Below are positions 620-58,440 of a stretch of 64,000 nucleotides of DNA, in pieces. The stretch is from Candidatus Heimdallarchaeum aukensis (GTDB lineage: Archaea; Asgardarchaeota; Heimdallarchaeia; Heimdallarchaeales; Heimdallarchaeaceae). Position 1 is the first letter of the stretch, and each line of letters begins with the position of its first letter. The DNA lies in the NCBI GenBank assembly GCA_021513695.1, contig CP084166.1, forward strand, positions 2,624,001 through 2,688,000. The letters are read 5' to 3'. The notes below the pieces were generated by a model that saw nothing but the letters and a program-made list of their open reading frames with translations, did no database searches and was not told the origin of the DNA. The translations under genes and the position numbers were made by a program.

Positions 620-720
620 CAAGTCTTCTAACTTTTCATTCAATTAAATGCTTTTCCCCTTTTTTTAATTATAAAGAAACACACTTAAAAACGTAAATAA
701 AAATAGTTCTTGAGAAAGAA

Positions 721-1974: not shown

Positions 1975-2046
1975 AATCAGAGACAAATCGACGGAAGATT
2001 TTTAGACTAGAAATAAGTATCTCAATATATAGGAAGAGGTATAGAA

Positions 2047-3333: not shown

Positions 3334-3399
3334 TCTCTCTCTTTTCTCTTTCTACAAAGAATTTTTAAATTCATAAGATAGAAGGTAGATGAAGTTACA

Positions 3400-8752: not shown

Positions 8753-8764
8753 AAACTAATTTCC

Positions 8765-29259: not shown

Positions 29260-29262
29260 AAA

Positions 29263-31772: not shown

Positions 31773-31777
31773 GAATA

Positions 31778-33233: not shown

Positions 33234-33235
33234 AA

Positions 33236-35629: not shown

Positions 35630-35641
35630 TAGGTGAATTAA

Positions 35642-36532: not shown

Positions 36533-36549
36533 AAAAAAGAGGAATAAAA

Positions 36550-37272
36550 ATGGCAAAAGCAATATCAATGAGAGAAAAAAAGGAAAAACTTGACACAGTA
36601 ACCATATATATTATGGGTCAAGGATACAAAGTTCCTTCTTCTTTAACCATAATGAAAGCAATGGAATATGCTGGTTTTAAACTTAAAAGAGGAGTCGGTT
36701 GTCGTGCAGGTTTTTGTGGAGCATGTGCAACCGTTTATAGAAAATTAGGTGATTACAAAATATATGCTAACTTAGCATGTCAAACTAAAGTCGAAGATGG
36801 GATGTATCTCACACAATTACCTTTTGTTCCTGCTAATAAAGCAGAATACAATCTTGACGAGATTAAACCTTCAGCTTCAACAATGCTCCGTTTCTATCCA
36901 GAAATAGCAAGATGCTTAAGCTGTAATGCTTGTTCAAGAGTGTGCCCACAAGATATACAAGTAATGGACTATGTTCAATACAGCTTGCAAGGGCAAATAG
37001 AAAAAGCAGCAGAACTAGCTTTTGATTGTATTCAATGCGGTCTTTGCGCAATTCGTTGCCCAGCAGAGATTCCTCAATATCATGTGGCGACATTGGCACG
37101 AAGATTACATGGTAAATATCATATGATTGCTCCTGATACTCTAGAACAAAGAGTAAAGGAAATAGAAGAAGGAAAATACGAAAAAGGATTTGAAGAGTTG
37201 ATGTCTCTATCTGAAGAAGAATTGAAGAAACGATACGTTGCAAGAGACTTTATTGATCAGAAAAAGGCGTGA
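36550..37272 (+). CDS. Succinate dehydrogenase/fumarate reductase iron-sulfur subunit-like protein (2Fe-2S plus 2x[4Fe-4S])
   Basis: GCRAGFCGACA (plant-ferredoxin-like cluster as in SdhB), then CLSCNACSRVCP and CIQCGLCAIRCP. Confidence 0.65.
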   Translation: MAKAISMREKKEKLDTVTIYIMGQGYKVPSSLTIMKAMEYAGFKLKRGVGCRAGFCGACATVYRKLGDYKIYANLACQTKVEDGMYLTQLPFVPANKAEYNLDEIKPSASTMLRFYPEIARCLSCNACSRVCPQDIQVMDYVQYSLQGQIEKAAELAFDCIQCGLCAIRCPAEIPQYHVATLARRLHGKYHMIAPDTLEQRVKEIEEGKYEKGFEELMSLSEEELKKRYVARDFIDQKKA

Positions 37273-37277
37273 GAAAA

Positions 37278-41394: not shown

Positions 41395-42801
41395 TTAGAT
41401 AAAATCTCCCGTTTCTATTTTCTGTGGGAGGTAGAAGTTTGTAATAAATTGTGGGTCACGTGCATTTAATGCTTGTATTTCTGCTTTATAACCTGTATTT
41501 ATTAGGATTTCAAGTTGTTCTTGCCATTTTGGTTTTCTCTTTACGAACTCTTCTTCAAGCATTAACTTTGATCTTCTTATGTCTTTTTGAGTCATTTTGA
41601 TTAGTGCTTCTCTAGGAATATCAAATCCACTTTCAGGTTTTAGATCACTTGGGAGCAAACCTAACCATTTAATATTTGGCACTGCAAGATGGGTTGATTC
41701 GAAACTAAGAGCTTTACTTCCAACGCTATATACTCTCATGATTTCGAATCCGTAAGGGTCAGCATCCATAATGGCAAGAATAGGTAATTGTAAGTCATCA
41801 TTTATTTTCTTTAGAAACTGTCTTGTTGCCATGTCAGGTTGACCTTTAGCTGTAACTAAAATGCTTGGTACATAATCGTAAAAATGGTCTTCTGCTAACC
41901 TGTTAAAAATAGCATCTTTTTCAATAACTAAACAAAATTCAGCATCACTTTCTAAATCTTCGATGTCATCTATATTTGGTGAAATAGCTTTTCCTGAACC
42001 GATAGCTCTACAATCTATAAGATCACCCTTTTCCTTGAATTGTAACTTTCCTACAACAATACCTTTAGACGATGCACTAACATTTAGTGAAGTCCTCGTA
42101 GCTTGTATCATTGCTCCTAAATCTTCAATAAGAGAGTCTGATACTGCTTGTTTCTTAAACGCATTCACATTCATGTAGAAAATATCTCTTTTTGTACTGT
42201 GAATATCACGTGATAGTATGTCATGAAGAAGTCTCATTAATATTGACATTTGTTCAATCGTGCTTACAGAGGATAAACTCCTAAATTGGCGTTCTATCAT
42301 TTGTCTACCAATAAGTACTAATTCTTGTTCTTCATCAAAACCAATATTTCTCTTTCCTCTTGAAGGAATTTTAAAACTAGCTTCATCAGGTTTGTTAAGT
42401 GCTTCATTCAAAAATAATAATGCTGCTTCAACAATTTTATTTTTAGCTTTTTCCGAAGACATTGTTTCTACATTAGTTACACCATAAGGTAACTCATAAT
42501 CCTGCAATAAAGTAAGTTCGTTTCTAAGTTTCCTTATTTTATCAACTGGAACTTTTCTTTTTATTTCAATTCTCATTAATTCTTTCTTAAGAGGATAATT
42601 ACCTAAGGTTTTACCTTTCTCTAGAGGATACCACTTCTTTCCGCTTCTCAAAAAGAGTACAAAAGATCCTTTTTTAAGTTCAAATTCTTCTTGTAATATT
42701 TGAAATAATTCATTTATCTGAATACTGTTATCAAAACTCATTTTTACTTCAGTTGAAGGCAATATTGTTGCATTTTTTACTAAAAAATTATAGTTTACCA
42801 T
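41395..42801 (-). CDS. top6A: DNA topoisomerase VI subunit A (Spo11/Top6A family)
   Basis: Winged-helix region with the RDIFY tyrosine, and the Toprim domain CLVIEKDAIF...ILVTAKGQPDMATRQFL...LPILAIMDADPYGFEIM. Starts 9 nt after the top6B stop with a GGTGG SD. Confidence 0.85.
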   Translation of the reverse strand: MVNYNFLVKNATILPSTEVKMSFDNSIQINELFQILQEEFELKKGSFVLFLRSGKKWYPLEKGKTLGNYPLKKELMRIEIKRKVPVDKIRKLRNELTLLQDYELPYGVTNVETMSSEKAKNKIVEAALLFLNEALNKPDEASFKIPSRGKRNIGFDEEQELVLIGRQMIERQFRSLSSVSTIEQMSILMRLLHDILSRDIHSTKRDIFYMNVNAFKKQAVSDSLIEDLGAMIQATRTSLNVSASSKGIVVGKLQFKEKGDLIDCRAIGSGKAISPNIDDIEDLESDAEFCLVIEKDAIFNRLAEDHFYDYVPSILVTAKGQPDMATRQFLKKINDDLQLPILAIMDADPYGFEIMRVYSVGSKALSFESTHLAVPNIKWLGLLPSDLKPESGFDIPREALIKMTQKDIRRSKLMLEEEFVKRKPKWQEQLEILINTGYKAEIQALNARDPQFITNFYLPQKIETGDFI

Positions 42802-42810
42802 TTTTCCACC

Positions 42811-45800
42811 TCATTTTGTACTCCTTTTTTTGGTTTCAATTTTTGTATCAGCTGAAATTTCATCTAAAGTTGTTTGTTTTGTTCGCTTTGAAGTTGTTGT
42901 TTTCTTTGTTGTTGTACTTGGTCTCTTTGTTTTAGTAGTCGTTGTTTTCTTTGTTGTTGTACTTGGTCTCTTTGTTTTAGTAGTCGTTGTTTTCTTTGTT
43001 GTTGTACTTGGTCTCTTTGCTTTGGTAGTCGTTGTTTTTACAAAAGGAATTGTCTGTTTGATCTTCTTTATATCATTATAAGTCATCTCTAGCTTTCCTT
43101 CAAGCTGAGATGTCGGATAAGCAATAAATTCTCCAATTGTATTAATTCCAAGTGAGTTCAACTTATTTCGTATTTGCTGTTTAACATCTAATTTTTCTAT
43201 TGGCTCTTCTATTAACTTTAGTAATTTTTGAACATTTTTGTTTTTGAAAATATCTTTTCTCTTCGTACGATTATCAGCAAATATCAACTCTTCAAACGAA
43301 GATATCCCTATTTCTTTTAATTTTGATATAATCTCACTGCTCATAAATGGTGTACTTTTCACTATTTGCGTTTTACCCTTCTTTGCAATTTTTAGAGATT
43401 GAGGAGTTAAAGTTGCAAAATAGTTTCTTAACTGCCTTTCTGTTATATTAGTAATTTCAGTCAGTTCGTTAATTTTTGTATTAAAAACATCCCAGAGAGA
43501 ATACTTCTGTTTATGGTATAATTTAAAGATACTGTTTGGTTTATCCTGCATTAGTGCATAGAATGAGTAAATTGGGTATGAAAGAAGTTCTTTTAATGTG
43601 GATATCTGTCTGATTGATAACTCTGTTTGTTCTTTAATTCTCTTATCAGAAACTGATAAATGTATAATGTGGGAATACCCACCGTTTTCCAATATGGATT
43701 TTTCAGTATCTGAAAATAGACCTAAATCTTTAATCCTATAGCTATTTAGTTCTAATTGCTCTTTCACTTTAGTCATGTTAAGAGAGTTAAGAAGTTCAGT
43801 AAATTCTGCACGTTGTTTTTCTGTAAATTTAATCTGTAAATCATCTATATTTTGTAGGAAGAAAAGATCATAAACTTGTTCATAACCTCTTTTTGCTAGT
43901 TGAAAAAGTATATTCTTTTGACGTATAAATAATGCTAATGATGCTCTAAAACAAGAAAGAACATCTTTTACTTTCATGGATAAGTCGCTGATATTTTTCT
44001 CTTCAAACAAAGCAATTAGTTCACCTAATGAATTTATATCATTTTCATTTAGCTCGTTAATTATTTCTTTATCGTTTACAAAATCTATAAGTTTAGAATT
44101 GCTTTGAGATGCTAATGAATCTAGATCATGGAACGGAATTTGAGATAAAAGGTTTTTAAGGACAGTTATGTTTGAAGATTTATTTAATAATAGTAAATCA
44201 TAAACTGTTTTTGTATTACTTTTTAGTAGAAGCCTAAATGTTTCCTTACTCTCAAAGACAAGTGGAAGAGAGTAAATTTTTTGTTCAATTCTTAAACGGA
44301 GTTTTTCCGTGATCTTCCATCTCTTTGAAGTTTTTGATTTTGATACAATATTAAACACGTAAGCCTCTTCTATAGAGAAAATGTGACCTTGACTTAAAAC
44401 ATCTAATTCAGTTTTATCCAAAATTGTTTCAGGAATGGGGGTTAACTTAGATGCTAGAGTACGTAATGTTTCTAGTGATAGATTTCGAATCTGACGTATT
44501 AGTCTATTATCGTCGATTATCTGACTTAACTGGTATCTAGGTTTTAAAATTAAATCTCCTATTGTTAAGTTGCCATATTGTTTGAATTTCTCTTTATTTT
44601 CAAAACTTTCATTGACTAGCAAAATAACATGCCTATTTAGAAATTGTAAGTATTCATTAAAGTGTAAAGTTATGGTCTCTGGGAAAGAACTTGTAATTTT
44701 GTCAAATTGCTTTTTATCATATTTCTCCAAGAGAAGTAAGGATTCAAGGGTATATTGGACTTTTAGTTCATCTTTTTCAGGAAGATTCAACTTTTCTTCG
44801 AATTTGGTTGGTTTTGAGAAAATAAATGAGTAAATATCAAGTAGTCTCTTGGATACTTGAGAATTTACTTTTAGAGAATCATGATGTATATTGAAGAAAA
44901 CTAATTGTTGAAAACTTAAGTCTGGGAGTTTTTCGTCAAAATATCGCGAAGAGAGTTTTTGTAAAAGTCCAATTTTTGTTCTTAATGAAGGTGAAAGGTT
45001 AGAAACAACATCAGTGTTTTCAAAGAGATCAAGATAATTCTTAATACCATTTTCTCTCAATTCAGCAATATCAAAATCTTGTAGAACAATGTTTGTTTTT
45101 AGAGCAGGGGGGTTGCTTATTCTAGAAATAGTAATCTTACTAAGAAAAGTGTCAACTTCACTAATGTTTGTGCTTATAATTTTTGCAAGAGCTGGCTTAG
45201 ATAACAAAAGCATTTCTTGTAGAGTACTTACTTTGGATAAAAGTTTTAACCAATTTTCGAGAGGAAGTTGTGGGAAAGAAATCAGATAAATAGATTTGTT
45301 TAATATCTTTTGAACATTATTTCGTAATTTACTTCTCAATTTACAGTGTTTTTTTGATAAATCATAAACCAAATCGTCAATAACTGTATAATATTTCAGT
45401 AATTTTTTCTTTGTTTCACTATCAAACAGCATAATATTGGAAAGTTGAACTCTTTTATCTCTCAATTTTTTAATTGTTTTAACATTCAAAGTTGAGAGAA
45501 CATGATTAACTTTCTCAAGTTGTTTTTCTGATAAGAATGAAGAATATGAAATAGGTTTAATTAGTAAATCCTTTAGTGTTTCGATTTTATGTTCATTCAG
45601 TTTTTCTACTTCTTTTTCAGTGAAATCTGTTATTATAGAGACAGAACTGTTAAGGAGGTTTAGAATCTCTAATCCTGTTTTAGTAAGAAACTCTTTGTTC
45701 ATGTATAAAACAGAAATAAAATCAATGATATTTGAGATCTCTGGAATTTCAATGTTTTTGCTGAATAAGTTTTTTGAATTAATAGTACCAAGAAAATCTT

Positions 45801-48800
45801 TTGTCTTTAACGTAAGAGATAATGTTTTCTTTTTATCTTTAATCAGATTACTAATTATGGTGTTATAATCACCAAAGCTGACTAGTTGATCGTTTTTAAC
45901 AAGATCTCTGATGGTGAAAAGATTGTTGTCAAAGTATTTTGTTTCAATCTCTTCAAATTTTAAGGAGTTAATAGAGCTTAAGAATAGGATTGATGTATCT
46001 AAAATTTGTTTTATTTTTGTTCTTATTTTTTCTATCTTTTTAATATCATAAAGCCAGTTGTATATTGAATTCTCTTCTAAATCTGAAAAACTATAGAATC
46101 CATAAGATAACAAAGTAGATTTTTCTTTTTCACTAAGAAATGGTAAATCTACAAAATGATTTGGCTTATCTTTTTCAATTGTTTTCTTGATTTTATCAAT
46201 CTTTATTGATGAGCGTAGTTTCAATATTTGATCAAGTTTAATCCTTGATTCTTTTGCGACTGTTTTATACGGAATAAGCAGTAGATCTGCGATAGTGTAT
46301 GTTCCACCTTTTTTAAGGTTAGTTTCTATTTTCTCTTCTAGTCCTAAATATCGAATATTGGCTAGTAAATATGGGCTAATTTCTGCAAATATGCTCTTAT
46401 CTTTTAGATTAACATCTCCAAGTAATTCTTGATAAGATAAGTACCCAAGTTTCATTGCTTTTTCTTCATATGAACCTAAAGGAGGAATAAAACTTTCAAG
46501 ATGTAGATTTTTTAACATTGATAGACTTGATAAAATTTCATCAACCATTGCATCATCTAGATTTTGGATAGAGGAAATAACATCTATAATGTAAACTAAC
46601 TTCTTGTTATAACAAGATTTTATTGTATCTAATGTCAATATAGGTAGATTGTTTATGTTTCTACTTAATTTCATTCTAATATCTTTAATTTCTTCAATGT
46701 ATGAATCTGGTAGGCTTAAGAAAAACTCTTCAGGGAAGTAATATAGATATTCAATTGAGAAAACTCCCAAACTGTATAGCTTTTGAACTAATGACTTATT
46801 TAACTTTAAGTTTGCAATATCAAGAGTAGAGAATTGAAGGGAAGATAGATTCCTAATGAAAAGAGAATTGTTCTCTTTTATGGCTTTATCCAATTTTGGG
46901 AGAAGGGTTTCCCACAGGTGAATAGGAATATGAAGGTAGTCATAATATGTTTTTTTATTTTTTAAAGATTCATTAATATTTTTTGTTGAAATCCCGAGTA
47001 TACGCTCAATTGTCTTTATTGGTGTAAAGAGAATAGGTATATTCACTATCAACTTTTCTTTTTCATCTTTGTTTATTTCTAATTGATCTACATCATGATA
47101 AAATAGTTGAATTAAAGAGTAAATCTCATTTTCATTAAGATATTCGATTGTAGAAACCTCGGGTTTTTTGATTGTTTTTGGACTAGTACCTTCTTTAGCT
47201 TCACGTTTTTTAATAAGTGGAAGTTTACCCTCTTTTGTTAGTTCTTTTTCAGTTAAGGATGGTAAAAGGTTTAAGTCGATTCCATAGAGTTTAAGTTCAG
47301 AAACAATATTTCTTTTACTAATCTGTAATTTAATAGTGTTTATCTCTTTATACTCTATTTCAAATAATTTACCCAAAGAAACTGATGGAATAGATAAAAA
47401 TTCAAGTATAGTGTTAATCTTATTTTCAAAGAGAATAGAGTTTTGTTGCAATGAAAGTGAACTTAAGAAGGAAATTGGAGTTGTTCCAAACAATGAGAGA
47501 GTCTTTTTTATTGATGATAAATTCTTATCTTCTGAACTGTAATCCTGTAAACAAAGAAGTTGATCTAAATACTCAATATTAATCTTTTTTAGATATAGCT
47601 TCTGTTGTTTGGACAAAAATTTTACATCACGTAACTTAATTGCCCATTTAGGTATTTGAAAATCAGATAAAGAACTTACTACATATTCTGCTAGTTCTAT
47701 GTCAATATTGTCTGGAGGAAGAAGTAATAAATCAAGAATAAGTTTTTTATCTTCCTTCATCAAATTTCTCAAAAACTCAAGCTGATCTATTTGAGAAAAT
47801 TTATCTAACCAAATAATTGGATATTTTACCATACTTGTAAGAGAATTAGAATTACTAAAGAGAATTTGAGAACTTATGACAAATGGTTGAGGAAGCAGAT
47901 CTAGTAGATTAATAACATCGGGAGAGGTCTTAATGTCTAGTTTATCACTTTTATTTGATAGAATGTCCAGATGATCTTTGGGAATTAAGTTAACTAATTT
48001 TTCTTTAGAAAATTCTTTTACAAAACGGATAATCTCACTTCTAGCATTTGATGGAATAGTTCTCTTTTCTTCAGAGCTAAGAGTAAGAAGTTCAATAATA
48101 TTTTTAACTCCATTTTTCCATAAATCAAGTTTGACGTCTAAACTCATGTCTGAGATAGAAAAAATATTTAGACATAAACCATAGATTAGTTCTTCAAGTT
48201 TAGCAATACTACTCGCTTTTTCTATTTTTTCACTTTCTGAGAATATAAGCAAGTATTCTGGTACCAACCCAAAGATATCTTCAAATGATGCTTTTGAAAG
48301 GTTGAATTTAAAGTCTGTGAGTGTACTTATTAATTCTTTATCTTCTTCAAGAATAGGTATGCCTGAACTAAGGCTTATGTTTCCCTTTCTTTTATCTTTT
48401 AACTCTTCAGGAATGGAATTGAATATCTTCTTAAGATCTTTTTCTCTAACTATAAAGAGGTCAATAACTCGTAGAATGCGGTTTTTTGCAAGACTACGTT
48501 TAATAAAGCGTGAAAGGTTTGAAATTCTGAAGACTGAAGAGTTACAAAGAGAGAGAAAATTATCAATATTTTCCTTAAATTCTTCAGAAAATGATTTTAT
48601 TTGATAACAAAGACCATAAAGATCTTGAACTGTGTCCTTATTCAGTTTTTGTAAGCTAAGAAGATTTCTCTTTGACAATAACGCAAGAGATTCAAGTTTT
48701 ATTCCTTTTTCTTCAACTTCATTTAGTATTTTTTTAACTGAAATATTTTCTTTTATTTTGATAATTTCAGTTTCAGGTATGTCTAAAATTAATGATATCG

Positions 48801-51800
48801 TAGTGATGTCTTCTGTTAAGAAGGTGAGTATATCCCCGACGCCAGAATAAACAAGTTTTAACATTTGTTCTAACTCTAAATCCAAGAAGAATACAGATGA
48901 GAGATACAACTTTGCTTCTTTAAATACATTCATGTTCACTAGATATGGGTATGATTTTCTGATTTCAGACATTCTAGAAATGAAGTCTTGAATTGAATAA
49001 ATCCCTAATTCATGTAATTTTTCTACATATTCACTTGTTATTGATGGACAATTTTCTAGAGGAATTGCAAAACGAAGTCTTTTCTCTTTTAATTCATCTA
49101 AAGATAACAAGTCAAATATATGAAATTCATCATAAATAGGATTGTTTAGAATTTGTGATAATTGTCCTTTTTCAAAAAGAGACAAATCGATTACTGAGTG
49201 AATATCCTGTAATTCTAGTTTCTTTATTTCTTCAAAAGACAAGAAACTAAGAAAAGTTATTGAACCTGATAATATTTCTTTAAATTCTCTATATTTCTCT
49301 TGCTTTAAGATACTGGATGCACCCATTCTTACTCCAGCATAGTACAAAGTTTCTATGTCTGATATTCCTATATCTCGTAATTTAGAAATTTCAGTTTCCG
49401 TGATGAGAGAAGAAGGCATAATAGGGTGAGATCTTGCTTTGTGTAATTCAACAATTTCACTATAAGATAGATTTTCCTTTATTTCATTAATCCTTTTTTG
49501 TGTTTCATTAGATATTTCAGAAAGTTTTTTGGTTGGTGTTGAATAAAAGTCTATTAATGTTGTAATTGAAGATCTGCTAAGAGGAAGAGCAAGATTAACG
49601 TCCAAGTTTAGTGAAGAAATAGGAATAGACAAATCACCTATAAGTTTATCTAAACTATTTTCTTCACCTAGTTTGTTTTTAATTTCCAAGAGAGGAGAGT
49701 TCTCCTCGAATTCAAGTTCAAATAAGCTCCCTAAAGTAATTATAAAGTATTTATTCCTCATATCTTCACTTAAAAGATTGAGAAAAGGTGTAATTCCAAG
49801 TGGTAATTCAAAAACTGAACGAATAAGTGTAATGTTACATTTTTCAAAAGCTAATTGTCTTTCAAATTCGCTGAGGGTTTTTATCAAATCTGTGCTGGAA
49901 ATAACATCAAGTAATGTTAACTCTTCAATATCTTCCAGAATAGTAGAAAAGAAGTCTTTATTGTAAGCAGTTGCAGAAAGAAAATCAAAGTAGTGATAAG
50001 CTCTCAAGTCAATTAATTTAGAAGAATAGTCTGAAACAGTTCTAAATAGCGTTCTATCCGTTAAATCGCTATCTAATATGAATATTAAATGGTAAAGGTG
50101 GGTTATTTGGTTTTGATTAAAAATAGTCAAAGAATAATCTGAAATCTCCTGAAAAATCCGTAAAGGAAGTGATAATATTTTCTTTAATGTGAAAACTTTT
50201 CTCCAGATTGATGAGTTTCTGTCGATGAAAACTTCATCGGGACAGTAGAAAAGTTCTTGAATTGATTGAAATCCTTCATAACTGTAAATTGTTTCTCTAC
50301 TTAGCGTTCTTTGTTCATTTTTGTCAAAAAGTCTAGTTTCATATGCATAGATTGCTCGCGCCTCATATTCTTCTCTTATTCTCTGTGATGTTAAAATGTC
50401 AATTATTTCCTTTGTTTCTTTTGTTGTAATGTTTAGGATATTACTGAGTTTAACAGATGAAGTAGAAACGAAATCAACTATAGTTAATATACCCGCTTTT
50501 CTCAATTCTTCAGTTTGTGAAAAAGAGATATTTGGTAAGAAATAAACAGGGAGACTGAAAAAGTAAAAAATTTCACCAAGATCTAGACTTCTCTTAATAT
50601 TATCAAAACGTTCGTCGGGAATCCCTGTTCTTTCCATTAGAACTTTAGATGACGTAAGTAGAAAACCTAACAATGTATTTATTTTGTTTTTCTTTAAGAG
50701 CTTAATTATATCTGGATCTAACATGTCTGACAAGTGCTTAAATCGTAAATTTAGCACATTTTTTAAATTCTGAACTATCTCCCATGGAATTGTTCTTATT
50801 GCCCATTTTTCTTGCTGAGTAGAAAAGTATAGGTCCTCAATGGTAAAGATGTTGTTAGTTTCTAAAATTTCTACTATCGATGGTCTAAAGATATCAAGTT
50901 CAGAAATATCTGTTCCAGTTTCACTAATCCTGATATTTTTCTTGTATTTTTTAGCTTCTTCTAAATCAATTTTTAAAATAGAAGCGATTGTTTCATCACT
51001 AACAAGGAAAAAGTCAATGATTCTTCTGATTCCAGTTTTTCTTAGAGCATTCAGCTGTTCATGGGATAAGCTTGTTATTTCAATTTCTTCAATTTCTTCC
51101 TCTTGTTTTGTTTCTTCATTTAATATCTTCTTCTTTGTGGTTTTTTCCCAAGTAACTAGCGTCAGGGGAGAACGCAATAGTTTCTTGAATTTTTCAATTA
51201 CACCCCATTTTATTATGGGAGCACCAAAAGTGTAAGGGTGTGTTAAATAAAATAGCTGGTCTATAGAATTGTAACCAATAACAAGTAAAGAACGGATTTC
51301 TTCAGGTGAAAAACGTTCTGAATTTTCAAAATCAAAGGAGATTATTGATTCATACTTACCACTAGATACTTTCTCGTAGAATGGTTGTCCATCTCTATTT
51401 ACATCAAAATTGTTTATTAACTCATCAAAATTCTTCTTTGAAAAATTAAGTATCGTGCTTAATTCATCAAAACTGTAATTTAAAAATTGGTGCAGAGAGT
51501 AAATCTTTTTTGAAGCTAATACTTCATAATCTTTAAGTTTCAAGCTTTTTATACGAGTGATTGGTAATTGCAAAAACTGATAGAAATCAATTATTTCGTG
51601 AGATAACAAAACTTTTTCTGCAAACTCATCAGTATCTTTAAGATTTTTACTATTTATATTGTCGTAGAGTTCAAGTAAAATTTTTTTGTCTTTATTTTTT
51701 GAAATTTCTGTCTCAATAAATACAGGTGTAAGTTGAAGGAAATCTCTTATTGTATTTACATCCTTGGTTTTGAGCTTAAGAAGAGCATCATTCAATGACT

Positions 51801-54800
51801 TTGCTTTAGATTTTGTTGGGGCTAACTTTGCTAAAAATATTAGATCTTCATTCATGAATTCTCTAAAGTTATTCATCTTAGTTAAAAGATCTGAAATCGA
51901 CGGAAGTTCTTCTTCAATATAAAAGTAAAACAACTCTTGTATTGTTGTTTGTTGTTCATTGAATTGCTTAACCAATCTTGGAAAGTGTTTTTTTATTATT
52001 TTTAAATTTCCTTTGTATCTTTCTTTATTTTTTGTAATCTTGTTAGCAGATATACTTTGTTTTAGACGTATAATTTCTTGTTCGTTAAGGTTTAATACCA
52101 AAGAGAGTTCTTTATTACTCCATATTAGAAACCTGCCTATACAGTTTACTCCAATTTCATTCAAAACGTTAATTTTCTCGTTTAGTTCAGGAAAAGCAAA
52201 AATCAAGGGAGTTCGTAATAGTAAGTAATCTGAAACATATTGTTTCTTTGTTTGTTCATCTTTAAATTCAAAATTCTCTGGTTGAGAATATAGAATGTCC
52301 TCTACTGTATAAATTTCATATTTACTTGCTTTGTTCTTCAAAGATAGAAAGTTAGGAATGGGCGTACCTATCTTTTTCTTTATTCTTGCAATCTCGCTTT
52401 TTAATAAACCCATTTCGCGTAATTTTTTCGATGGTGTAATCAAGAATGATGTGGAAGTAAATATCTTGTTTTCTAGCAATTTTTCTTCAGCTTTTTCACT
52501 AATCACTTTTAAGTGTGATAGGTCAAGGTCTTTATTTACTTCATTAAGATGAGAAAGAATGCGAAACTTTGATTCTTCTAATAGACTATCAACAAAAACA
52601 CTTAGTTCTTTTTTCATTAACGTTCTTAATTTAGCGTTTGCATATTGTGCTAAGGTTTCTATATTCGCTGATTTAAGACTGTCTAGTATGTTTTTTCTTA
52701 TATTGTCATCTATGGTTGATATTAGTCCTAGTTTGTTAAGAGGGATAGATCTCTCGCTGTTAGCTAGAATAGTGAAAAATCTAGTATAAATAGAACGCTC
52801 TAATTCTTTGATTTCTAAAAGGTCTTTAGTTGGCGTTTTAAGAAAATTATCTATTGTCTCTATCTTTCTTCTATGAAAAGCATTTTTAGAATATCCATCT
52901 ATCCAATCAGGTTTCATTTTTGTAATGTTGACCTTTAGAAAATCAGGAAACTTTTCTGAAACATGTGAAAATACCTTTTTAACGTAATCAATCAACATTT
53001 CTGTTAAATCATTATCATATTTAAACGAAAAAGGCTCATTGAACTTATAAATAAAATCCTCTAACCCCTTAAACTTATTTGAAAAGTTGGGATAACTTGT
53101 TTTTATATAATTGAAATCTGGATACAGAAATTCTTCTTTTAACTCTGAATAATCAGACATAGTTTCTAAATTAAATTTAAATTCTTCGATAAAGATCGAC
53201 AACTCTACTGTTTCTTGGCCATCTTGAGATTTTGTAACTTCGTTAATTAGCTTAAATTTGTTATCTTCTATTAGACGTTCTACTAAACCTTCAACTAAAC
53301 GCAATTGTGTAGCTTCTGTAGCTAAATAATGATAGCTATTTTGAATCCATCTTTGATATAATGCTTCATTGAAACTACTACTAGTTCCTTGACGTGCAAA
53401 CCTCTTATCTATCATTTTATTTGTTAATGCTTTTAGTGGGAGTTCAGGGCTCAACTTAGACCTGTCTAGTTCATAAATTGTTCTTTGTTTTATTCTTGAA
53501 ACTTCTTTTTTTGAAAGATTCAAAATAGGAGCTAGTTCTGAAACAGGTATGGAAAGAAACTTTCCAATTGTTAAAATATCACTTTTAGCACAACTTTTCT
53601 TGTATTTATCAGGGCACCACACATTAAGTTCAAAAATGGGTGTCCCTAAAGGAACAAAATTTCTAATTTTCTTTTTTGCTCCGTGAGCTAGAGCTGCTGC
53701 AACTTTATATTTTTCTTTATTTATGTTTGTATAAACTATTTTTTCATTCTCTAAAATTCTTGCGAGGTTATCAATTACAACAGGTGCTGATCGTACAAAA
53801 CGGGATAATCGTGCATGTTCTCTTTTCCTTCTTTTTGCTCTACTAAGGAATGTTTTAAGTCTTCTACCAAGTTGTTGTAAAGCTAACCTAATCTCTTCTT
53901 CAATTTCTGGGACGGTTGAGATATACTCCTTACTCGTTTCAGGAAAAGGTATTTTTGTACTTACAATTGATACTGCAATCGCGAGAGGATCTGATTGTCT
54001 TGTAAGACCGTATTCACTCCAATTAAGCGAAGAAACTACTTTTGTAATAACGTCATTTCCCGCACCAAAAATTAAAGGAATTCTATTTGCATATCGATAA
54101 ATTATTTTGTTGTCGACTGACGTGCTTCCTTTTTGTTGAGCATATTTTGATACTCCCCCCCCATAACCTATTGCTGCTTCAACGATAAAAGGATGACCAG
54201 AATAAGCTTTTGGAGGACGAGAAATCGCTTCTACAAACTCTGGTTCAAGTTCTTTTTCTAAACCTTTTCTTAATCTTGCTGCTCCTAAAGGAGAAAGAGC
54301 ATCACCTTGTGGAGCATCAAATCTAAAGATTCTATCTCTTTTTCTTTTTATTTCTTTAGCCTCTTGGTAGGCTTTGATAAATCCTTCATGAACTATTCTT
54401 CTAATTTCTTTAGAAGTAAGGTCGCTAGGCTTTTTATTAGGGTCAATTTCTAAAATCTGAAAGAACTCTTCAGCTACTTCTTTTCTTACTCCCATAAAAT
54501 CTTTTGACAGAAAATCAACTAGATTTTCTGCAGAAGTAGCAGCAATTTTTGCTTTAAACTGAGTGATATCACATCCAAATGGGTGTAACTGAATTACTTT
54601 AGGAGGGTCGGGCATATCATCTACTACTTTTTGGAAAACTAATGTTTCACTTGTTCCTTCTTCATCTCCTGGAAGAACTACAGTAAAACTTGCATAGGGA
54701 GTAATTATAGCTAATTGTTTAAAATACTCCTTAATACTGTTCTTTGCTAGATTCCAAGCTCCAGTAAAAGTTATACTTATCTCAGTACCGCTAGTGTGCA

Positions 54801-55365
54801 AATATCCTGGGTCATCTGGATTATATTCGTGTTGTTCCATAATAACAGGTTCATTTTTTTCCAAGTTGATCATTAAATGAACTTCTGTAGTCATTTCTTC
54901 CATGAAGTATCTGCTCTTTATCCTTGCAGGAAGATCTACAGATGACATAGAATGTAGTAGACACATCTTGGCTCCTAAACCAAATCTGCCTCTAGTTTGA
55001 ATTACTCCATATTTTGTTCCTGTTAATACTCTACCAAAAAGATTTGGAATCTCATGACCAGGAACACCTACACCGTTATCTCTACATGTTAACTGAAGAA
55101 AATCAAGATGTTTTTCTAACTGTTTATATCTGGTAATATCTAATAATTCATTAATTTCAGAACTTGATAACTTCCTTAATTCAATATATATTTCAGGGTT
55201 CACACCTAGTTTTTCTGCTGCATCTAAGCCATTCTCGACCAATTCTCTAACAGAGGTAAAAACAGCTCGCATCGAGTTGCCAAAACCTGCAATGGCCTTA
55301 TTTTCATTGAAGAAAGCAGCTGCACTCATTTTTCGTGTTTTATTTTCTTCAGCCACAAAATTCAC
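42811..55365 (-). CDS. top6B: Giant (4184 aa) DNA topoisomerase VI subunit B fusion. The N-terminal ~540 aa carry the Top6B GHKL ATPase and transducer. They are followed by ~3,500 aa of tandem HhH-like repeats and a Lys/Thr-rich basic tail.
   Basis: Bergerat-fold motifs ELVENGLDA (N box), RDNGVGVP (G1) and GRFGLGAKM (G2), then a transducer-like region ending in a long basic helix. The rest is one uninterrupted ORF. A 12.5-kb stop-free frame in AT-rich DNA cannot arise by chance. SD GGAG 7 nt upstream of the ATG. Confidence 0.8.
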   Translation of the reverse strand: MNFVAEENKTRKMSAAAFFNENKAIAGFGNSMRAVFTSVRELVENGLDAAEKLGVNPEIYIELRKLSSSEINELLDITRYKQLEKHLDFLQLTCRDNGVGVPGHEIPNLFGRVLTGTKYGVIQTRGRFGLGAKMCLLHSMSSVDLPARIKSRYFMEEMTTEVHLMINLEKNEPVIMEQHEYNPDDPGYLHTSGTEISITFTGAWNLAKNSIKEYFKQLAIITPYASFTVVLPGDEEGTSETLVFQKVVDDMPDPPKVIQLHPFGCDITQFKAKIAATSAENLVDFLSKDFMGVRKEVAEEFFQILEIDPNKKPSDLTSKEIRRIVHEGFIKAYQEAKEIKRKRDRIFRFDAPQGDALSPLGAARLRKGLEKELEPEFVEAISRPPKAYSGHPFIVEAAIGYGGGVSKYAQQKGSTSVDNKIIYRYANRIPLIFGAGNDVITKVVSSLNWSEYGLTRQSDPLAIAVSIVSTKIPFPETSKEYISTVPEIEEEIRLALQQLGRRLKTFLSRAKRRKREHARLSRFVRSAPVVIDNLARILENEKIVYTNINKEKYKVAAALAHGAKKKIRNFVPLGTPIFELNVWCPDKYKKSCAKSDILTIGKFLSIPVSELAPILNLSKKEVSRIKQRTIYELDRSKLSPELPLKALTNKMIDKRFARQGTSSSFNEALYQRWIQNSYHYLATEATQLRLVEGLVERLIEDNKFKLINEVTKSQDGQETVELSIFIEEFKFNLETMSDYSELKEEFLYPDFNYIKTSYPNFSNKFKGLEDFIYKFNEPFSFKYDNDLTEMLIDYVKKVFSHVSEKFPDFLKVNITKMKPDWIDGYSKNAFHRRKIETIDNFLKTPTKDLLEIKELERSIYTRFFTILANSERSIPLNKLGLISTIDDNIRKNILDSLKSANIETLAQYANAKLRTLMKKELSVFVDSLLEESKFRILSHLNEVNKDLDLSHLKVISEKAEEKLLENKIFTSTSFLITPSKKLREMGLLKSEIARIKKKIGTPIPNFLSLKNKASKYEIYTVEDILYSQPENFEFKDEQTKKQYVSDYLLLRTPLIFAFPELNEKINVLNEIGVNCIGRFLIWSNKELSLVLNLNEQEIIRLKQSISANKITKNKERYKGNLKIIKKHFPRLVKQFNEQQTTIQELFYFYIEEELPSISDLLTKMNNFREFMNEDLIFLAKLAPTKSKAKSLNDALLKLKTKDVNTIRDFLQLTPVFIETEISKNKDKKILLELYDNINSKNLKDTDEFAEKVLLSHEIIDFYQFLQLPITRIKSLKLKDYEVLASKKIYSLHQFLNYSFDELSTILNFSKKNFDELINNFDVNRDGQPFYEKVSSGKYESIISFDFENSERFSPEEIRSLLVIGYNSIDQLFYLTHPYTFGAPIIKWGVIEKFKKLLRSPLTLVTWEKTTKKKILNEETKQEEEIEEIEITSLSHEQLNALRKTGIRRIIDFFLVSDETIASILKIDLEEAKKYKKNIRISETGTDISELDIFRPSIVEILETNNIFTIEDLYFSTQQEKWAIRTIPWEIVQNLKNVLNLRFKHLSDMLDPDIIKLLKKNKINTLLGFLLTSSKVLMERTGIPDERFDNIKRSLDLGEIFYFFSLPVYFLPNISFSQTEELRKAGILTIVDFVSTSSVKLSNILNITTKETKEIIDILTSQRIREEYEARAIYAYETRLFDKNEQRTLSRETIYSYEGFQSIQELFYCPDEVFIDRNSSIWRKVFTLKKILSLPLRIFQEISDYSLTIFNQNQITHLYHLIFILDSDLTDRTLFRTVSDYSSKLIDLRAYHYFDFLSATAYNKDFFSTILEDIEELTLLDVISSTDLIKTLSEFERQLAFEKCNITLIRSVFELPLGITPFLNLLSEDMRNKYFIITLGSLFELEFEENSPLLEIKNKLGEENSLDKLIGDLSIPISSLNLDVNLALPLSRSSITTLIDFYSTPTKKLSEISNETQKRINEIKENLSYSEIVELHKARSHPIMPSSLITETEISKLRDIGISDIETLYYAGVRMGASSILKQEKYREFKEILSGSITFLSFLSFEEIKKLELQDIHSVIDLSLFEKGQLSQILNNPIYDEFHIFDLLSLDELKEKRLRFAIPLENCPSITSEYVEKLHELGIYSIQDFISRMSEIRKSYPYLVNMNVFKEAKLYLSSVFFLDLELEQMLKLVYSGVGDILTFLTEDITTISLILDIPETEIIKIKENISVKKILNEVEEKGIKLESLALLSKRNLLSLQKLNKDTVQDLYGLCYQIKSFSEEFKENIDNFLSLCNSSVFRISNLSRFIKRSLAKNRILRVIDLFIVREKDLKKIFNSIPEELKDKRKGNISLSSGIPILEEDKELISTLTDFKFNLSKASFEDIFGLVPEYLLIFSESEKIEKASSIAKLEELIYGLCLNIFSISDMSLDVKLDLWKNGVKNIIELLTLSSEEKRTIPSNARSEIIRFVKEFSKEKLVNLIPKDHLDILSNKSDKLDIKTSPDVINLLDLLPQPFVISSQILFSNSNSLTSMVKYPIIWLDKFSQIDQLEFLRNLMKEDKKLILDLLLLPPDNIDIELAEYVVSSLSDFQIPKWAIKLRDVKFLSKQQKLYLKKINIEYLDQLLCLQDYSSEDKNLSSIKKTLSLFGTTPISFLSSLSLQQNSILFENKINTILEFLSIPSVSLGKLFEIEYKEINTIKLQISKRNIVSELKLYGIDLNLLPSLTEKELTKEGKLPLIKKREAKEGTSPKTIKKPEVSTIEYLNENEIYSLIQLFYHDVDQLEINKDEKEKLIVNIPILFTPIKTIERILGISTKNINESLKNKKTYYDYLHIPIHLWETLLPKLDKAIKENNSLFIRNLSSLQFSTLDIANLKLNKSLVQKLYSLGVFSIEYLYYFPEEFFLSLPDSYIEEIKDIRMKLSRNINNLPILTLDTIKSCYNKKLVYIIDVISSIQNLDDAMVDEILSSLSMLKNLHLESFIPPLGSYEEKAMKLGYLSYQELLGDVNLKDKSIFAEISPYLLANIRYLGLEEKIETNLKKGGTYTIADLLLIPYKTVAKESRIKLDQILKLRSSIKIDKIKKTIEKDKPNHFVDLPFLSEKEKSTLLSYGFYSFSDLEENSIYNWLYDIKKIEKIRTKIKQILDTSILFLSSINSLKFEEIETKYFDNNLFTIRDLVKNDQLVSFGDYNTIISNLIKDKKKTLSLTLKTKDFLGTINSKNLFSKNIEIPEISNIIDFISVLYMNKEFLTKTGLEILNLLNSSVSIITDFTEKEVEKLNEHKIETLKDLLIKPISYSSFLSEKQLEKVNHVLSTLNVKTIKKLRDKRVQLSNIMLFDSETKKKLLKYYTVIDDLVYDLSKKHCKLRSKLRNNVQKILNKSIYLISFPQLPLENWLKLLSKVSTLQEMLLLSKPALAKIISTNISEVDTFLSKITISRISNPPALKTNIVLQDFDIAELRENGIKNYLDLFENTDVVSNLSPSLRTKIGLLQKLSSRYFDEKLPDLSFQQLVFFNIHHDSLKVNSQVSKRLLDIYSFIFSKPTKFEEKLNLPEKDELKVQYTLESLLLLEKYDKKQFDKITSSFPETITLHFNEYLQFLNRHVILLVNESFENKEKFKQYGNLTIGDLILKPRYQLSQIIDDNRLIRQIRNLSLETLRTLASKLTPIPETILDKTELDVLSQGHIFSIEEAYVFNIVSKSKTSKRWKITEKLRLRIEQKIYSLPLVFESKETFRLLLKSNTKTVYDLLLLNKSSNITVLKNLLSQIPFHDLDSLASQSNSKLIDFVNDKEIINELNENDINSLGELIALFEEKNISDLSMKVKDVLSCFRASLALFIRQKNILFQLAKRGYEQVYDLFFLQNIDDLQIKFTEKQRAEFTELLNSLNMTKVKEQLELNSYRIKDLGLFSDTEKSILENGGYSHIIHLSVSDKRIKEQTELSIRQISTLKELLSYPIYSFYALMQDKPNSIFKLYHKQKYSLWDVFNTKINELTEITNITERQLRNYFATLTPQSLKIAKKGKTQIVKSTPFMSSEIISKLKEIGISSFEELIFADNRTKRKDIFKNKNVQKLLKLIEEPIEKLDVKQQIRNKLNSLGINTIGEFIAYPTSQLEGKLEMTYNDIKKIKQTIPFVKTTTTKAKRPSTTTKKTTTTKTKRPSTTTKKTTTTKTKRPSTTTKKTTTSKRTKQTTLDEISADTKIETKKRSTK
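42904..43038 (-). repeat. Three tandem copies of a 45-bp direct repeat at the 3' end of the giant top6B gene, encoding (KRPSTTTKKTTTTKT)x3
   Basis: The unit ctttgttgttgtacttggtctctttgttttagtagtcgttgtttt recurs at 42904, 42949 and 42994, the last copy with 2 mismatches. It reads in frame on the minus strand as KRPSTTTKKTTTTKT. Confidence 0.85.
43040..53580 (-). other. Region of the giant top6B gene encoding a tandem array of degenerate (HhH)2-type repeats (RpoA-alphaCTD/NusA/HhH_5-like). At least a dozen strong copies and many weaker ones.
   Basis: Recurring ~55-65-aa unit L..xGIxTIxDL...S..eL..ILNI[ST]xKE..EIK..L. Examples: LRKTGIRRIIDFFLVSDETIASILKIDLEEAKKY, LRKAGILTIVDFVSTSSVKLSNILNITTKETKEI, LNEIGVNCIGRFLIWSNKELSLVLNLNEQEIIRLKQ, LNSLGINTIGEFIAYPTSQLEGKLEMTYNDIKKIKQ, LHELGIYSIQDF, LRDIGISDIETL. 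Confidence 0.5.
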
Positions 55366-55503: not shown

Positions 55504-58440
55504 TTATTTTTTCTTGCGGAACAATTGTTGTTTTACTGGTTCTGGATTAATTGTTAGAGAAGAAACAATTATACCAAGTGTTAGAATAAATAATGCTGCA
55601 AAAGCCCCTCCAGTTCTGTAAGAGTCAGCTCTTCCGATTATTGAGAGGAACTCATCTTCTATTTGTTTAGCAAGGTTATCTGTGGAATATAGGATATCTT
55701 CGAGCCAGAATAAGTTTGCCATGTCTGCAGTAAGTTTTGGATAAGTTTGATGCCATGTTCTGTATTTATATTGAATGTCTTCAGTATCTTCTACAACATC
55801 TTCATCAAGGAATGGATAGTACTCAATATATTGTCCTGCATAAGTGTTGTATTGTACTCTATCTCTTCGTTCAAGAATTGTACCAGTTGTTGGGTCAGTG
55901 AAGATCTGTTGGAAGTGGAATTCATCACGTATAGAACCTGGGAAGGTGTGAGTGATATAAATATCGTCATTCTTCCAATCGGTACCATGAATTTGGTTCC
56001 ATCTTCCTACATGGACGAAACTCTCGTTTAGGTAGTCTGCATACTCTTGCCAGTATAAATCGTATTGATCGACTTGTAGGTAAGGTTGTTGTGTATCTGC
56101 ATAATAAATGTAAGCATCTCTACCATACATGATTGTTTTATCTCTGGCTGAATCAAATATAAATGGACGATAGAAGTACTCAACCCATCTTTGTGTAAAT
56201 CCTCTTTCTGTGTTTGGAGGTAGGACATCTAATCCATAAGTTTCACTAAATGGTTCAAACTGTGTAGTCTTCATTGGCCAATTGTTTAATTGAACAAAAG
56301 AAGCTTTATCCCAAATTTCAACGAATGTTCTTAATTCGTCTCTATGTAAGACATCACTGAATGAACCTGAAGAATAGGTTATGTGTATTAATCCTTTTGA
56401 ACCATCTGCAAGGTAAATGTTTTCACCAGAAGCATAAATATCGTATGCTTCTCCGTCACTATCATAAGTTGCTAAACTTGTTAAGGAATTGACGTTAGAT
56501 GCATCAACTACAATCAAACCATTTTCTCCAGCAGTGAGATATAGCAGATCGTTGTTTTGGTATAGGTTGAAGAATCCACCAGAAACACCAAAGTCATATG
56601 TTCCTATTTGAGTTAAGGTGTTTCCACTAATGGAATAAACAACAAGTCCTAAGGTGTCATCAAGAACATACAGAGTTGTTCCATCTAATAATAACTGAGT
56701 TGCTCCAGTAAGAGAAACGTTTGCTAATGATTCTAATGTAACTGCATCAAAAACTTCTATTCCTCGTCCCTGTTCAACAGCATAGGCTTTTGTTCCATCA
56801 GTTACAACAGCTGTAACAGGAGATTCAGTCTCTTTAAGTGTGTTTAGTGATATGTCTCCTCCATTAGTAGTTGCTTTAGCTAATCCATATTGACCCATAG
56901 CGATGAGCATAAAAGTCTTTGTTGGATTATATTCAAGGTCTAAAGCGTTTATATCTCCTCCATTGGTCCAAACTGTAATTTGGTCAATTTCTGTAAGATC
57001 AGACATATCTAATGAAACTATTCCTTTTTCTCCTGCTGCTACGTATGCAAAATCGCCATATAAACTAGTTTCAAAAGCGATGTCTCTGAAGAAATAACCT
57101 TGTAATCTGTATCCACCAATACCCAAAAACAAGGGGCTGGATGTGTTTACTATTCTAAATCCTCTATTTCCTTCAATAACATAAGCGAATTCGTCATTCA
57201 TTTCAACCTTATAACTTTGAGATTCTTCGAAGGTTGGTATGTTGGCTATTCCAATGATTTCATCAACTTTTGTTATATTATCTCTTCCTGTTTTAACAGC
57301 GTATAATAGGTCTGTTGAAGGATCAACTGAGTCAACTGCAAATGACTGATTAACTAAGAAAGGATATTTTTTTCCGCCGAGGAGTGGATCTTCAACTCCT
57401 GTAACCCATTCTAAAGCTGTTCTTTCACATATGTATGATATCTTGTTTTCATATAACCAGTTTAAAGCAGGTGTACCAGTAAGATATCTGATGTATGCAG
57501 CAAAAGATTGAGCTTGTTCTAGTTCCTCTGGTGTATCGATGTCATAAATTTCTGCTAACTTTTGAGTTACATTAATTGTGAGGATTGAGGGGTCATAGCT
57601 TAACCCTTGGACTAAATCAAGGAAGTACTTCATAGAACCGGCTTCTCCAGTGAATAGAGAATAATCATGACCATCTGCAGTAATTGCATTAAAGAGAATT
57701 TTGTAGGCTGTAGCGCTATCAAAGTTAATATCAGTGTGGTCAGGACGTGAGTTGATCCACATGTGAGGGCTATATTTGATACTATAAATTAGGTCGTTAG
57801 TTTGAGCATATGCCTTATTTAGCACAAGTTTAGCAATCTCACTGTTGTTGTATCCTAAACCTTCTAACTCGCTTCGAATCATAAATCCTGCAACATAAGC
57901 TTGTAAACCATATTCTGAACCATTACCAAAATTTTTCACATAATATGGCCAGAGGTAGTTATAATTGATGATTTTCTCATTACCTGTTAATGTTGAAAGT
58001 GTTTTATTTAAAGTGTATTGTTTCCGTTCGGTGTAAACAACATAATCATTTTCTTCACTATAATCAATTACAAATTTCTTCACTTCTAAGTCAAATACTA
58101 GTTTTCCTGGAATACCTATGTAAGTAATTGGAGTGTTCTTGTACAAGTATGCGTTTCTATCACTTATGTTGTAAAATTCTATATACGTATGAGCGTAATA
58201 ATTACTATCATCAGAGTATTTAGCAACATACATCCAATCAGAGTAATTGTCGCTTCCTCCTTCATAAGGATCAAGATCGTCTTCTGTAATCATACCATAC
58301 TCATTTAGCTTCTCTTCTATTTGATTATTGATTTTAATAGTTTGAATTGGTAACATTACGCCAACTGCGATAGCTGATCCAGAAGTTAAAATTAAAATAA
58401 ATATTCCTAACATTACACGGAATTTTTTCTGCATAGTCAT
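55504..58440 (-). CDS. LVIVD-repeat (beta-propeller) surface protein with an N-terminal signal/TM and a C-terminal TM anchor
   Basis: Repeated GLIVVDASN, GLVVYSISG, GIEVFDAVT, GFRIVNTSS and GIVSLDMSD motifs of the LVIVD repeat. Hydrophobic N-terminus (MLGIFILILTSGSAIAVGV), C-terminal GGAFAALFILTLGIIVSSLTI followed by basic residues. Many NxS/T sequons. Confidence 0.6.
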   Translation of the reverse strand: MTMQKKFRVMLGIFILILTSGSAIAVGVMLPIQTIKINNQIEEKLNEYGMITEDDLDPYEGGSDNYSDWMYVAKYSDDSNYYAHTYIEFYNISDRNAYLYKNTPITYIGIPGKLVFDLEVKKFVIDYSEENDYVVYTERKQYTLNKTLSTLTGNEKIINYNYLWPYYVKNFGNGSEYGLQAYVAGFMIRSELEGLGYNNSEIAKLVLNKAYAQTNDLIYSIKYSPHMWINSRPDHTDINFDSATAYKILFNAITADGHDYSLFTGEAGSMKYFLDLVQGLSYDPSILTINVTQKLAEIYDIDTPEELEQAQSFAAYIRYLTGTPALNWLYENKISYICERTALEWVTGVEDPLLGGKKYPFLVNQSFAVDSVDPSTDLLYAVKTGRDNITKVDEIIGIANIPTFEESQSYKVEMNDEFAYVIEGNRGFRIVNTSSPLFLGIGGYRLQGYFFRDIAFETSLYGDFAYVAAGEKGIVSLDMSDLTEIDQITVWTNGGDINALDLEYNPTKTFMLIAMGQYGLAKATTNGGDISLNTLKETESPVTAVVTDGTKAYAVEQGRGIEVFDAVTLESLANVSLTGATQLLLDGTTLYVLDDTLGLVVYSISGNTLTQIGTYDFGVSGGFFNLYQNNDLLYLTAGENGLIVVDASNVNSLTSLATYDSDGEAYDIYASGENIYLADGSKGLIHITYSSGSFSDVLHRDELRTFVEIWDKASFVQLNNWPMKTTQFEPFSETYGLDVLPPNTERGFTQRWVEYFYRPFIFDSARDKTIMYGRDAYIYYADTQQPYLQVDQYDLYWQEYADYLNESFVHVGRWNQIHGTDWKNDDIYITHTFPGSIRDEFHFQQIFTDPTTGTILERRDRVQYNTYAGQYIEYYPFLDEDVVEDTEDIQYKYRTWHQTYPKLTADMANLFWLEDILYSTDNLAKQIEDEFLSIIGRADSYRTGGAFAALFILTLGIIVSSLTINPEPVKQQLFRKKK

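Follow-up and report, generated by a model that had tools for sequence, protein, structure and literature searches.

A very large, conserved extension of helix-hairpin-helix modules on topoisomerase VI subunit B, specific to Heimdallarchaeia

Topoisomerase V (Topo V) of Methanopyrus kandleri, a type IC enzyme, carries 12 tandem domains of the double helix-hairpin-helix type, (HhH)2, behind its topoisomerase module; DNA is wrapped by these domains, which serve as a processivity factor (PMC9489208). Subunit B of topoisomerase VI (Topo VI), Top6B, is a protein of about 470-620 amino acids (aa) in its canonical archaeal form and ends in one or two helices (TACK) or in an Ig-like domain of ~100 aa (Euryarchaeota group II; PMC9348778). 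Here we describe a top6B gene in a 64,000-nucleotide stretch of Candidatus Heimdallarchaeum aukensis (contig CP084166.1, forward-strand positions 2,624,001 to 2,688,000; hereafter the window, to which all nucleotide positions refer), in which some 3,640 residues come after a full-length Top6B core. This very large extension, composed of HhH modules, is real, conserved and specific to Heimdallarchaeia.

The open reading frame (ORF) of top6B extends over positions 42811..55365 of the (-) strand and comprises 4,184 codons plus the stop, as taken from the ORF list and its translation. Judged by every feature that can be tested in its sequence, the protein is a genuine Top6B. The catalytic core (GHKL ATPase, H2TH region and transducer; aa 1-540, 53746..55365 (-)) can be aligned over its whole length with Top6B of S. 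shibatae (2zbk_B; 5e-88), covers 158 of the 159 profile positions of Pfam Topo-VIb_trans (3.5e-57) and passes the NCBIfam equivalogs for Top6B (NF003218, 474 bits with a cut-off of 274; TIGR01052, 406 bits with a cut-off of 381). The GHKL/Bergerat ATP-binding motifs RELVENGLDA (N box), DNGVGVP (G1) and GRFGLGAK (G2) match those of the S. shibatae protein, and the switch lysine of the transducer is present, with ETSKEYI lying opposite SAGKESI of 2zbk_B. Identity over the core amounts to ~35% with plant TOP6B and ~37% with other archaeal Top6B. The gene for the Spo11-type catalytic subunit, top6A (468 aa, 41395..42801 (-)), starts 9 nucleotides (nt) after the top6B stop; its product contains the Pfam domains TP6A_N (3.6e-19) and TOP6A-Spo11_Toprim (2.4e-59), and the RDIFY catalytic-tyrosine motif, the Toprim Glu and DADPYG are all found in its translation. 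In its full-length core, ATP boxes, switch lysine and adjacent top6A, the locus resembles canonical archaeal Top6B (S. shibatae 2ZBK, M. mazei 2Q2E), and a preliminary description of this DNA, which had proposed that a repeat array is grafted onto Topo VI, was correct in this respect. On these sequence grounds the core is complete and catalytically intact, and ATP-dependent strand passage by an A2B2 enzyme is predicted.

Both subunits show peculiarities at their N-termini. The listed start of top6B is the GTG at 55365, with an alternative in-frame ATG at codon 13 (55329); translation from this ATG, 12 codons 3' of the GTG, yields MSAAAFF... ahead of the conserved SAAxFF N-terminal strap, which leaves the start ambiguous, and the orthologue of Candidatus Heimdallarchaeum endolithica PR6 displays the same arrangement of GTG and in-frame ATG. 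In Top6A, residues 1 to ~110 form an extra region, the NCBIfam Top6A models matching only from residue ~110-134; this region is possibly related to the N-terminal helices specific to Asgard archaea and eukaryotes of Brinkmeier et al. (PMC9665070).

Behind the core lies an almost all-helical array (aa 586-4106, 43048..53610 (-)) of diverged four-helix modules that resemble (HhH)2 domains and the C-terminal domain of the RNA polymerase alpha subunit (alphaCTD). The preliminary description had reported about 3,500 residues of tandem repeats at 43040-53580, which corresponds to aa 596-4109, and had given four example peptides, all of which were found in the translation (aa 1438-1474, 1621-1654, 1068-1105 and 4069-4106). 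A hidden Markov model (HMM) iterated from these peptides detects a recurring motif of ~43 aa in 24 copies at an independent E-value (i-E) <= 0.01, or 36 with the weak ones included; the 24 sequence-significant modules start at aa 593, 827, 959, 1063, 1195, 1279, 1436, 1552, 1617, 1929, 2045, 2112, 2166, 2288, 2412, 2640, 2739, 2779, 3011, 3252, 3589, 3767, 4011 and 4064. A profile-profile scan with 14 orthologues gave 28 matches, 17 of them with a probability >40. As a non-circular control, an HMM trained on aa 542-2300 only was applied to aa 2301-4106, where it found nine matches; 100 shuffles of the same region gave a mean of 0.06 matches and a maximum of 1. The repeat profiles used were built from the window alone or from its orthologues alone: a family-wide HMM from all 77 proteins was dropped, as it had drifted to the Hodarchaeales consensus and lost copies in the window.

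The arrangement of the modules is less regular than this count might imply. Four consecutive modules form the tightest cluster (aa 1435-1657, 50395..51063 (-)), with a period of 55-65 aa: here DSSP returns H9-loop-H6-H8-H9 four times at a predicted local distance difference test score (pLDDT) of about 85-92. Outside this cluster the recognisable copies are irregular and about 100-230 aa apart. In a confident AlphaFold2 model of 1,159 residues, 12 four-helix modules fill only about half of the residues. Thus the recurring modules are real over aa 586-4106, but they are separated by linkers rather than continuous, and the unit of 55-65 aa said to recur dozens of times is present in 24-36 copies while keeping that period only at aa 1435-1657. 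By scaling the ratio of structural to sequence-detected modules in the first model (12:9) to the whole array, we estimate that it contains about 30-35 modules.

The assignment of the modules to the HhH type, with an (HhH)2/SAM-like fold close to that of alphaCTD and of the N-terminal domain (NTD) of RAD51, which the preliminary description had made by pattern recognition, is confirmed by profile searches and by predicted structures. In a Pfam scan of ten overlapping 400-aa segments at curated cut-offs, RNA_pol_A_CTD was matched with 24.7, 28.4 and 33.8 bits (cut-off 23.8) and RAD51D_N with 43.4 bits (cut-off 27.3), the latter in the cluster at aa 1435-1657; weaker matches in array segments were to HHH_5, TfoX_C and IMS_HHH. 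Four of the ten segments (aa 2356-2755, 2723-3122, 3090-3489 and 3457-3856) gave no HhH-type Pfam match, one of them showing a weak NCH2 match only. Homologues outscore the window protein, reaching 99.9 bits for RAD51D_N and 51-82 bits for HHH_5. When a profile of 20 copies was searched against the PDB, many RpoA alphaCTD chains and a Pol IV HhH were retrieved; a single-sequence phmmer search with the four-module segment found no match in the PDB.

The AlphaFold2 model of aa 542-1700, calculated from a 45-sequence alignment, has a mean pLDDT of 87.1 and a predicted template-modelling score (pTM) of 0.72. The four-helix fold with two HhH elements is present in it: DSSP yields helix(9)-loop-helix(6)-helix(8)-helix(9) twelve times, the remainder consisting of linker helices and one beta-hairpin insert, and Foldseek aligns the model with single RAD51C-NTD and alphaCTD chains at template-modelling (TM) scores of 0.63-0.66 relative to those chains. 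A pTM of 0.72 over 1,159 residues suggests that the modules are packed against each other in the predicted structure instead of being strung like beads. The insert (aa ~1322-1431, 51073..51402 (-)) comprises two beta-hairpin elements around a partial HhH-like module, as judged from model strands and conserved columns; it is the sole non-helical part of aa 542-1700, coincides with strongly conserved alignment columns, and has its strands at model residues 789-810 and 863-890, where the pLDDT is mostly 85-93 with a dip to 65-77 at model residues 861-900. For aa 2400-3590 the alignment consisted of only seven orthologous sub-sequences cut from the full-length MAFFT alignment, and the model reached a pLDDT of 61.9 and a pTM of 0.38; it is all-helical with nine full modules, and its confident blocks match the same domain types as the first model. 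Generic solenoids (HEAT, TPR or armadillo) were considered and rejected: CAND1, importins and similar proteins appeared for the low-confidence model at probabilities of no more than 0.16 and TM ~0.1.

A search with the whole protein returned 76 proteins, all of them giant Top6B, in three size classes: ~4,160-4,340 aa in Heimdallarchaeaceae, including one protein at 98% identity, ~3,470-3,920 aa in Kariarchaeaceae and relatives, and ~2,310-2,980 aa in Hodarchaeales, among them Ca. Hodarchaeum mangrovi. For most homologues a match to Pfam PF26169 has been precomputed. Thirteen independent assemblies contain an intact orthologous ORF of 4,161-4,341 aa. The alignment of the window protein with the 13 full-length orthologues, whose identity to it is 41-48%, is collinear and nearly free of gaps; the individual modules are therefore positional orthologues. 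The ratio of nonsynonymous to synonymous substitution rates (dN/dS) was determined against strain PR6 of the close relative Ca. Heimdallarchaeum endolithica (closed genome CP084167.1), whose core is 97% identical, and amounts to 0.016 for the core and 0.088 for the array (3,333 codons; blocks 0.04-0.17), with no stop in the 3,873 codons available from this orthologue. These data support the view that the array is old and under purifying selection, as had been proposed from the sequence of the window.

The architecture of a Top6B of 2,300-4,340 aa carrying such an array is, among the sequences searched, confined to Heimdallarchaeia. When aa 542-1700 were compared by HMMER with 1.84 billion representative proteins, only 39 clusters were found at E <= 1e-3; six of these were doubtful and were checked, two containing a Top6B transducer domain and the other four consisting of HhH sequence alone, probably truncated where their contigs end. 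Outside Heimdallarchaeia, the closest Top6B cores (Njordarchaeia, Korarchaeota, TACK and plants) are found in proteins of mostly 505-680 aa. Apparently short Hodarchaeales Top6B proteins of 611-622 aa were considered as array-less forms and rejected, as the one contig inspected carries the array in the two next ORFs: on contig Ga0452209_041493 (L001, positions 1-9620) top6B is split into ORFs of 611, 617 and 1,033 aa between gyrA, which lies directly upstream, and top6A. The split may be genuine, or it may stem from a frameshift or a sequencing error.

The comparison with Topo V, to which the preliminary description had likened the array, holds for the architecture. In both proteins a topoisomerase module is followed by a long run of (HhH)2-type domains in one chain, but the catalytic domains are unrelated, type IC in one case and type IIB, A2B2 and ATP-dependent in the other; the N-terminal domain here is that of Top6B, and the Topo V-type topoisomerase domain is absent from this position. 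Furthermore, the heimdallarchaeal array is ~6 times longer with ~3 times more modules, these modules are of alphaCTD/RAD51-NTD type and separated by linkers, and the array is not basic and shows no lyase signature. In a Foldseek search with the whole model Topo V (8df7_A, 5hm5) ranks first, yet not significantly (E 0.18-0.25, TM 0.08-0.10), and PDB searches with the modules gave no sequence match to the Topo V array. The resemblance is an analogy of architecture only and not kinship: the earlier phrase of a convergent solution is fair for the design, but not yet for the function.

Other proteins in which related folds occur differ in arrangement. The alphaCTD of RpoA and AR1/AR2 of NusA occur as one domain or two at the tip of a flexible linker, while in RAD51/RadA and the RAD51 paralogues the corresponding unit is a single N-terminal domain of a recombinase; to our knowledge, the RAD51-type N-terminal domain has never been found in an array or in a topoisomerase. 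The specialisation of type II topoisomerases is set by added DNA- or chromatin-binding elements such as the beta-pinwheel of GyrA/ParC, the C-terminal region of eukaryotic Topo II, and RHL1/BIN4. The heimdallarchaeal extension shares this general theme with them, the folds being entirely different and homology being neither detected nor expected. RHL1 and BIN4 are mentioned as partners of plant Topo VI (PMC9665070). In the literature that we searched by full text, a scope outside which most papers in subscription journals fall, there is no description of the array: the nearest mention concerns C-terminal extensions particular to a lineage, or a 'globular domain', in Top6B of gyrase-encoding Asgard archaea (Villain et al. 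2022, PMC9348778), while Brinkmeier et al. (2022, PMC9665070) list an Asgard C-terminal domain as present and a replisome study of 2025 contains a Top6B phylogeny only. Marker phylogenies of Top6B trim the extension away, which may explain why it has not been remarked upon earlier.

The array ends in a basic, Thr/Lys-rich tail of low complexity (aa 4107-4184, 42814..43047 (-)) with a net charge of +20 and an isoelectric point (pI) of 11.3, which is the only strongly basic portion of the C-terminal extension; all complete homologues likewise end in a basic tail rich in K/S/T/P or in a short basic peptide. Within the tail lies a tandem DNA repeat of 45 nt x 3.3 copies with 97% matches (42892..43038 (-); Tandem Repeats Finder and direct-repeat search), encoding a 15-aa tail unit, and this is the only repeat at the DNA level, in agreement with the earlier remark that none exists apart from the tail. 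At 21 residues from the C-terminus we observed the sequence KQTTLDEIS (aa 4163-4171, 42853..42879 (-)), which resembles a PCNA-interacting peptide (PIP) box and is kept in register in all Heimdallarchaeaceae orthologues as [KR]Q[TIM]TL[LFMV]D[VMIL]. Counterparts at the C-termini of shorter Heimdallarchaeia Top6B read QKSLNAF, QKSLDEY, QKTLDAM, GRLDSYM and EVDKFF; with reference to the consensus Qxx(M/L/I)xxF(Y/F) (PMC1636371), QKSLNAF, QKSLDEY, RLDSYM and EVDKFF are closer to a canonical PIP box than the window copy. The putative PIP-like motif suggests docking of Topo VI on PCNA.

Topo VI is slow and distributive in vitro. We infer, with somewhat better than even confidence in the explanation as a whole, that the HhH array and the basic tail tether Topo VI to the chromosome. 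The two extensions of each A2B2 enzyme would form long, largely rigid arms that tether an intrinsically distributive enzyme: duplex DNA of any sequence would be bound by the basic tail together with those modules that are more basic (aa ~541-1140 and 3241-3440), PCNA may be a docking site for the PIP-like peptide, and the remaining neutral or acidic modules would serve as a structural spacer or as a surface for protein contacts. The net effect would be to raise the local concentration of DNA and to make capture of the second duplex easier, with processive decatenation or relaxation near replication forks.

Several results weigh against this explanation and have to be set beside the main rival, in which the array is a protein-protein scaffold or a rigid spacer and not a DNA binder. 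The glycine-containing hairpin that contacts the DNA backbone (h-G-h-G type) is lacking in most modules: of the 24 in the window, 43% retain a glycine in hairpin 1 and 11% in hairpin 2, the values across orthologues being 51% and 23%, respectively, while the conserved module columns are chiefly those of the hydrophobic core plus one Lys in the last helix. Positions aligned with the DNA contacts of alphaCTD are not conserved either (HMMER alignment, column frequencies): with the residues that we take to form its DNA-contact set (the '265 determinant'), the Arg of LSVRS and the Gly of NLGKKS stand opposite module columns that are variable or acidic and Ser/Thr. The array is charge-neutral, with a net charge of +5 over 3,566 aa and a pI of 7.9, and the arrays of homologues range from -113 to +32, many being acidic. 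In addition, confidence is low in the model of aa 2400-3590, in which about a third of the residues have no fold call, and the window sequence QTTLDEIS keeps the Q and L of the PIP box with Ile-Ser in place of the aromatic pair. A pure protein scaffold would fit the neutral-to-acidic charge, including acidic blocks at aa 1241-1640, 2041-2140 and 2341-2440 within a charge profile that is conserved among orthologues (r 0.4-0.8), the retention of the hydrophobic core while hairpin glycines were lost, and the inter-module packing to which the pTM of 0.72 points; packed SAM-like/(HhH)2 modules would then recruit partners, for example replisome, chromatin or segregation proteins, or, as a spacer, hold the core at a set distance from an anchor formed by the basic tail. 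The same fold is indeed widely used in protein-protein contacts. However, the families closest in sequence, namely the RAD51 N-domain, alphaCTD and HHH_5, bind DNA, the enzyme itself acts on DNA, and a clearly basic character is seen in the tail and in some blocks. We regard the scaffold or spacer as possible and distinctly less probable than even, while DNA binding by the array, given its neutral charge, the loss of most hairpin glycines and a Topo V match that is not significant, is to be called plausible only.

A different kind of explanation, which is compatible with the array acting either as DNA tether or as scaffold, sees the extension as an adaptation to living with DNA gyrase, by which Topo VI would be restrained, sequestered or specialised such that gyrase-driven supercoiling is spared; such a role has been proposed earlier for the Ig-like domain in which euryarchaeal Top6B ends, and for Asgard extensions of an unspecified kind (PMC9348778). 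Villain et al. (PMC9348778) report that C-terminal extensions of Top6B particular to a lineage occur only in gyrase-encoding archaea, and they detected gyrase in Heimdall-, Kari- and Hodarchaeota, to which the position of gyrA immediately upstream of top6B on the Hodarchaeales contig can be added. This is a correlation only, no gyrase gene lies within the 64-kb window, and an Ig domain of ~100 aa would suffice for this role in Euryarchaeota, which would leave 3,500 residues unexplained; we consider this reading quite unlikely. Very little probability attaches to a bifunctional topoisomerase-repair protein in which some HhH modules carry a second activity, such as an apurinic/apyrimidinic (AP) lyase or another DNA repair function: the architecture is analogous to that of Topo V, where this is the case, but the array resembles that of Topo V significantly neither in sequence nor in structure, Pfam and NCBIfam scans found no repair-enzyme family in any segment, and neither an invariant lysine nor another column of catalytic appearance runs across the modules, save for the helix-4 Lys common to the whole module family. 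That the long ORF is an artefact of assembly or annotation, or decaying low-complexity sequence, could be suspected from the Hodarchaeales contig with three ORFs, yet intact ORFs of 2,300-4,340 aa are present in dozens of independent assemblies, including a closed genome, and this conservation across genomes, together with the collinear alignment, the dN/dS of 0.09 and the high-confidence fold prediction, refutes an artefact with near certainty.

Tethering of Topo VI through its arms may also be extended to a more ambitious proposal, which we put forward as speculation that is probably wrong: in Heimdallarchaeia, which among archaea are placed nearest to eukaryotes, the only type IIB topoisomerase would have become a machine of megadalton size associated with the chromosome. 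It would decatenate DNA while tethered to the replisome and at the same time form part of the structure of the chromosome, with two HhH arms, each several tens of nm long, ending in basic peptides that resemble histone tails and contain a PCNA-docking motif. If true, this machine would parallel in archaea what the C-terminal region of eukaryotic Topo II does as scaffold and tether, or what the partners of plant Topo VI do. The protein would be a second, independent example of a topoisomerase with a long HhH array, its enzyme class being unrelated and the scale far larger, and a built-in tether of such size would allow one to test directly how the behaviour of a type II topoisomerase depends on accessory mass that binds DNA or protein. 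The extension is conserved in Heimdallarchaeaceae, Kariarchaeaceae and Hodarchaeales, a lineage discussed as sister to eukaryotes, and its core stands about as near to plant TOP6B as to the Top6B of other archaea, which makes it relevant to the elaboration of chromosome handling before eukaryotes.

The window as a whole is AT-rich (about 27-38% G+C; 28-30% in the array portion), and scans with Rfam and for tRNAs found nothing in it. Upstream of top6B lies a gene for a 978-aa protein (55504-58440 (-)) with LVIVD repeats and a weak match to the CD36 family. Three ORFs are without a Pfam match at E <= 1e-3: 8765-11563 (-), 932 aa; 58673-59938 (-), 421 aa; and 61638-62948 (+), 436 aa. A co-directional cluster at 27230-38936 (+), with a higher G+C content (0.33-0.38) and a strong positive GC skew, encodes 2-oxoacid:ferredoxin oxidoreductase subunits, an HdrA-like flavoprotein, MvhD, the small and large [NiFe]-hydrogenase subunits, a maturation protease, CCG-domain and Fe-S proteins and an FAD-binding protein, and looks like an electron-bifurcating hydrogenase module of the Mvh/Hdr type.

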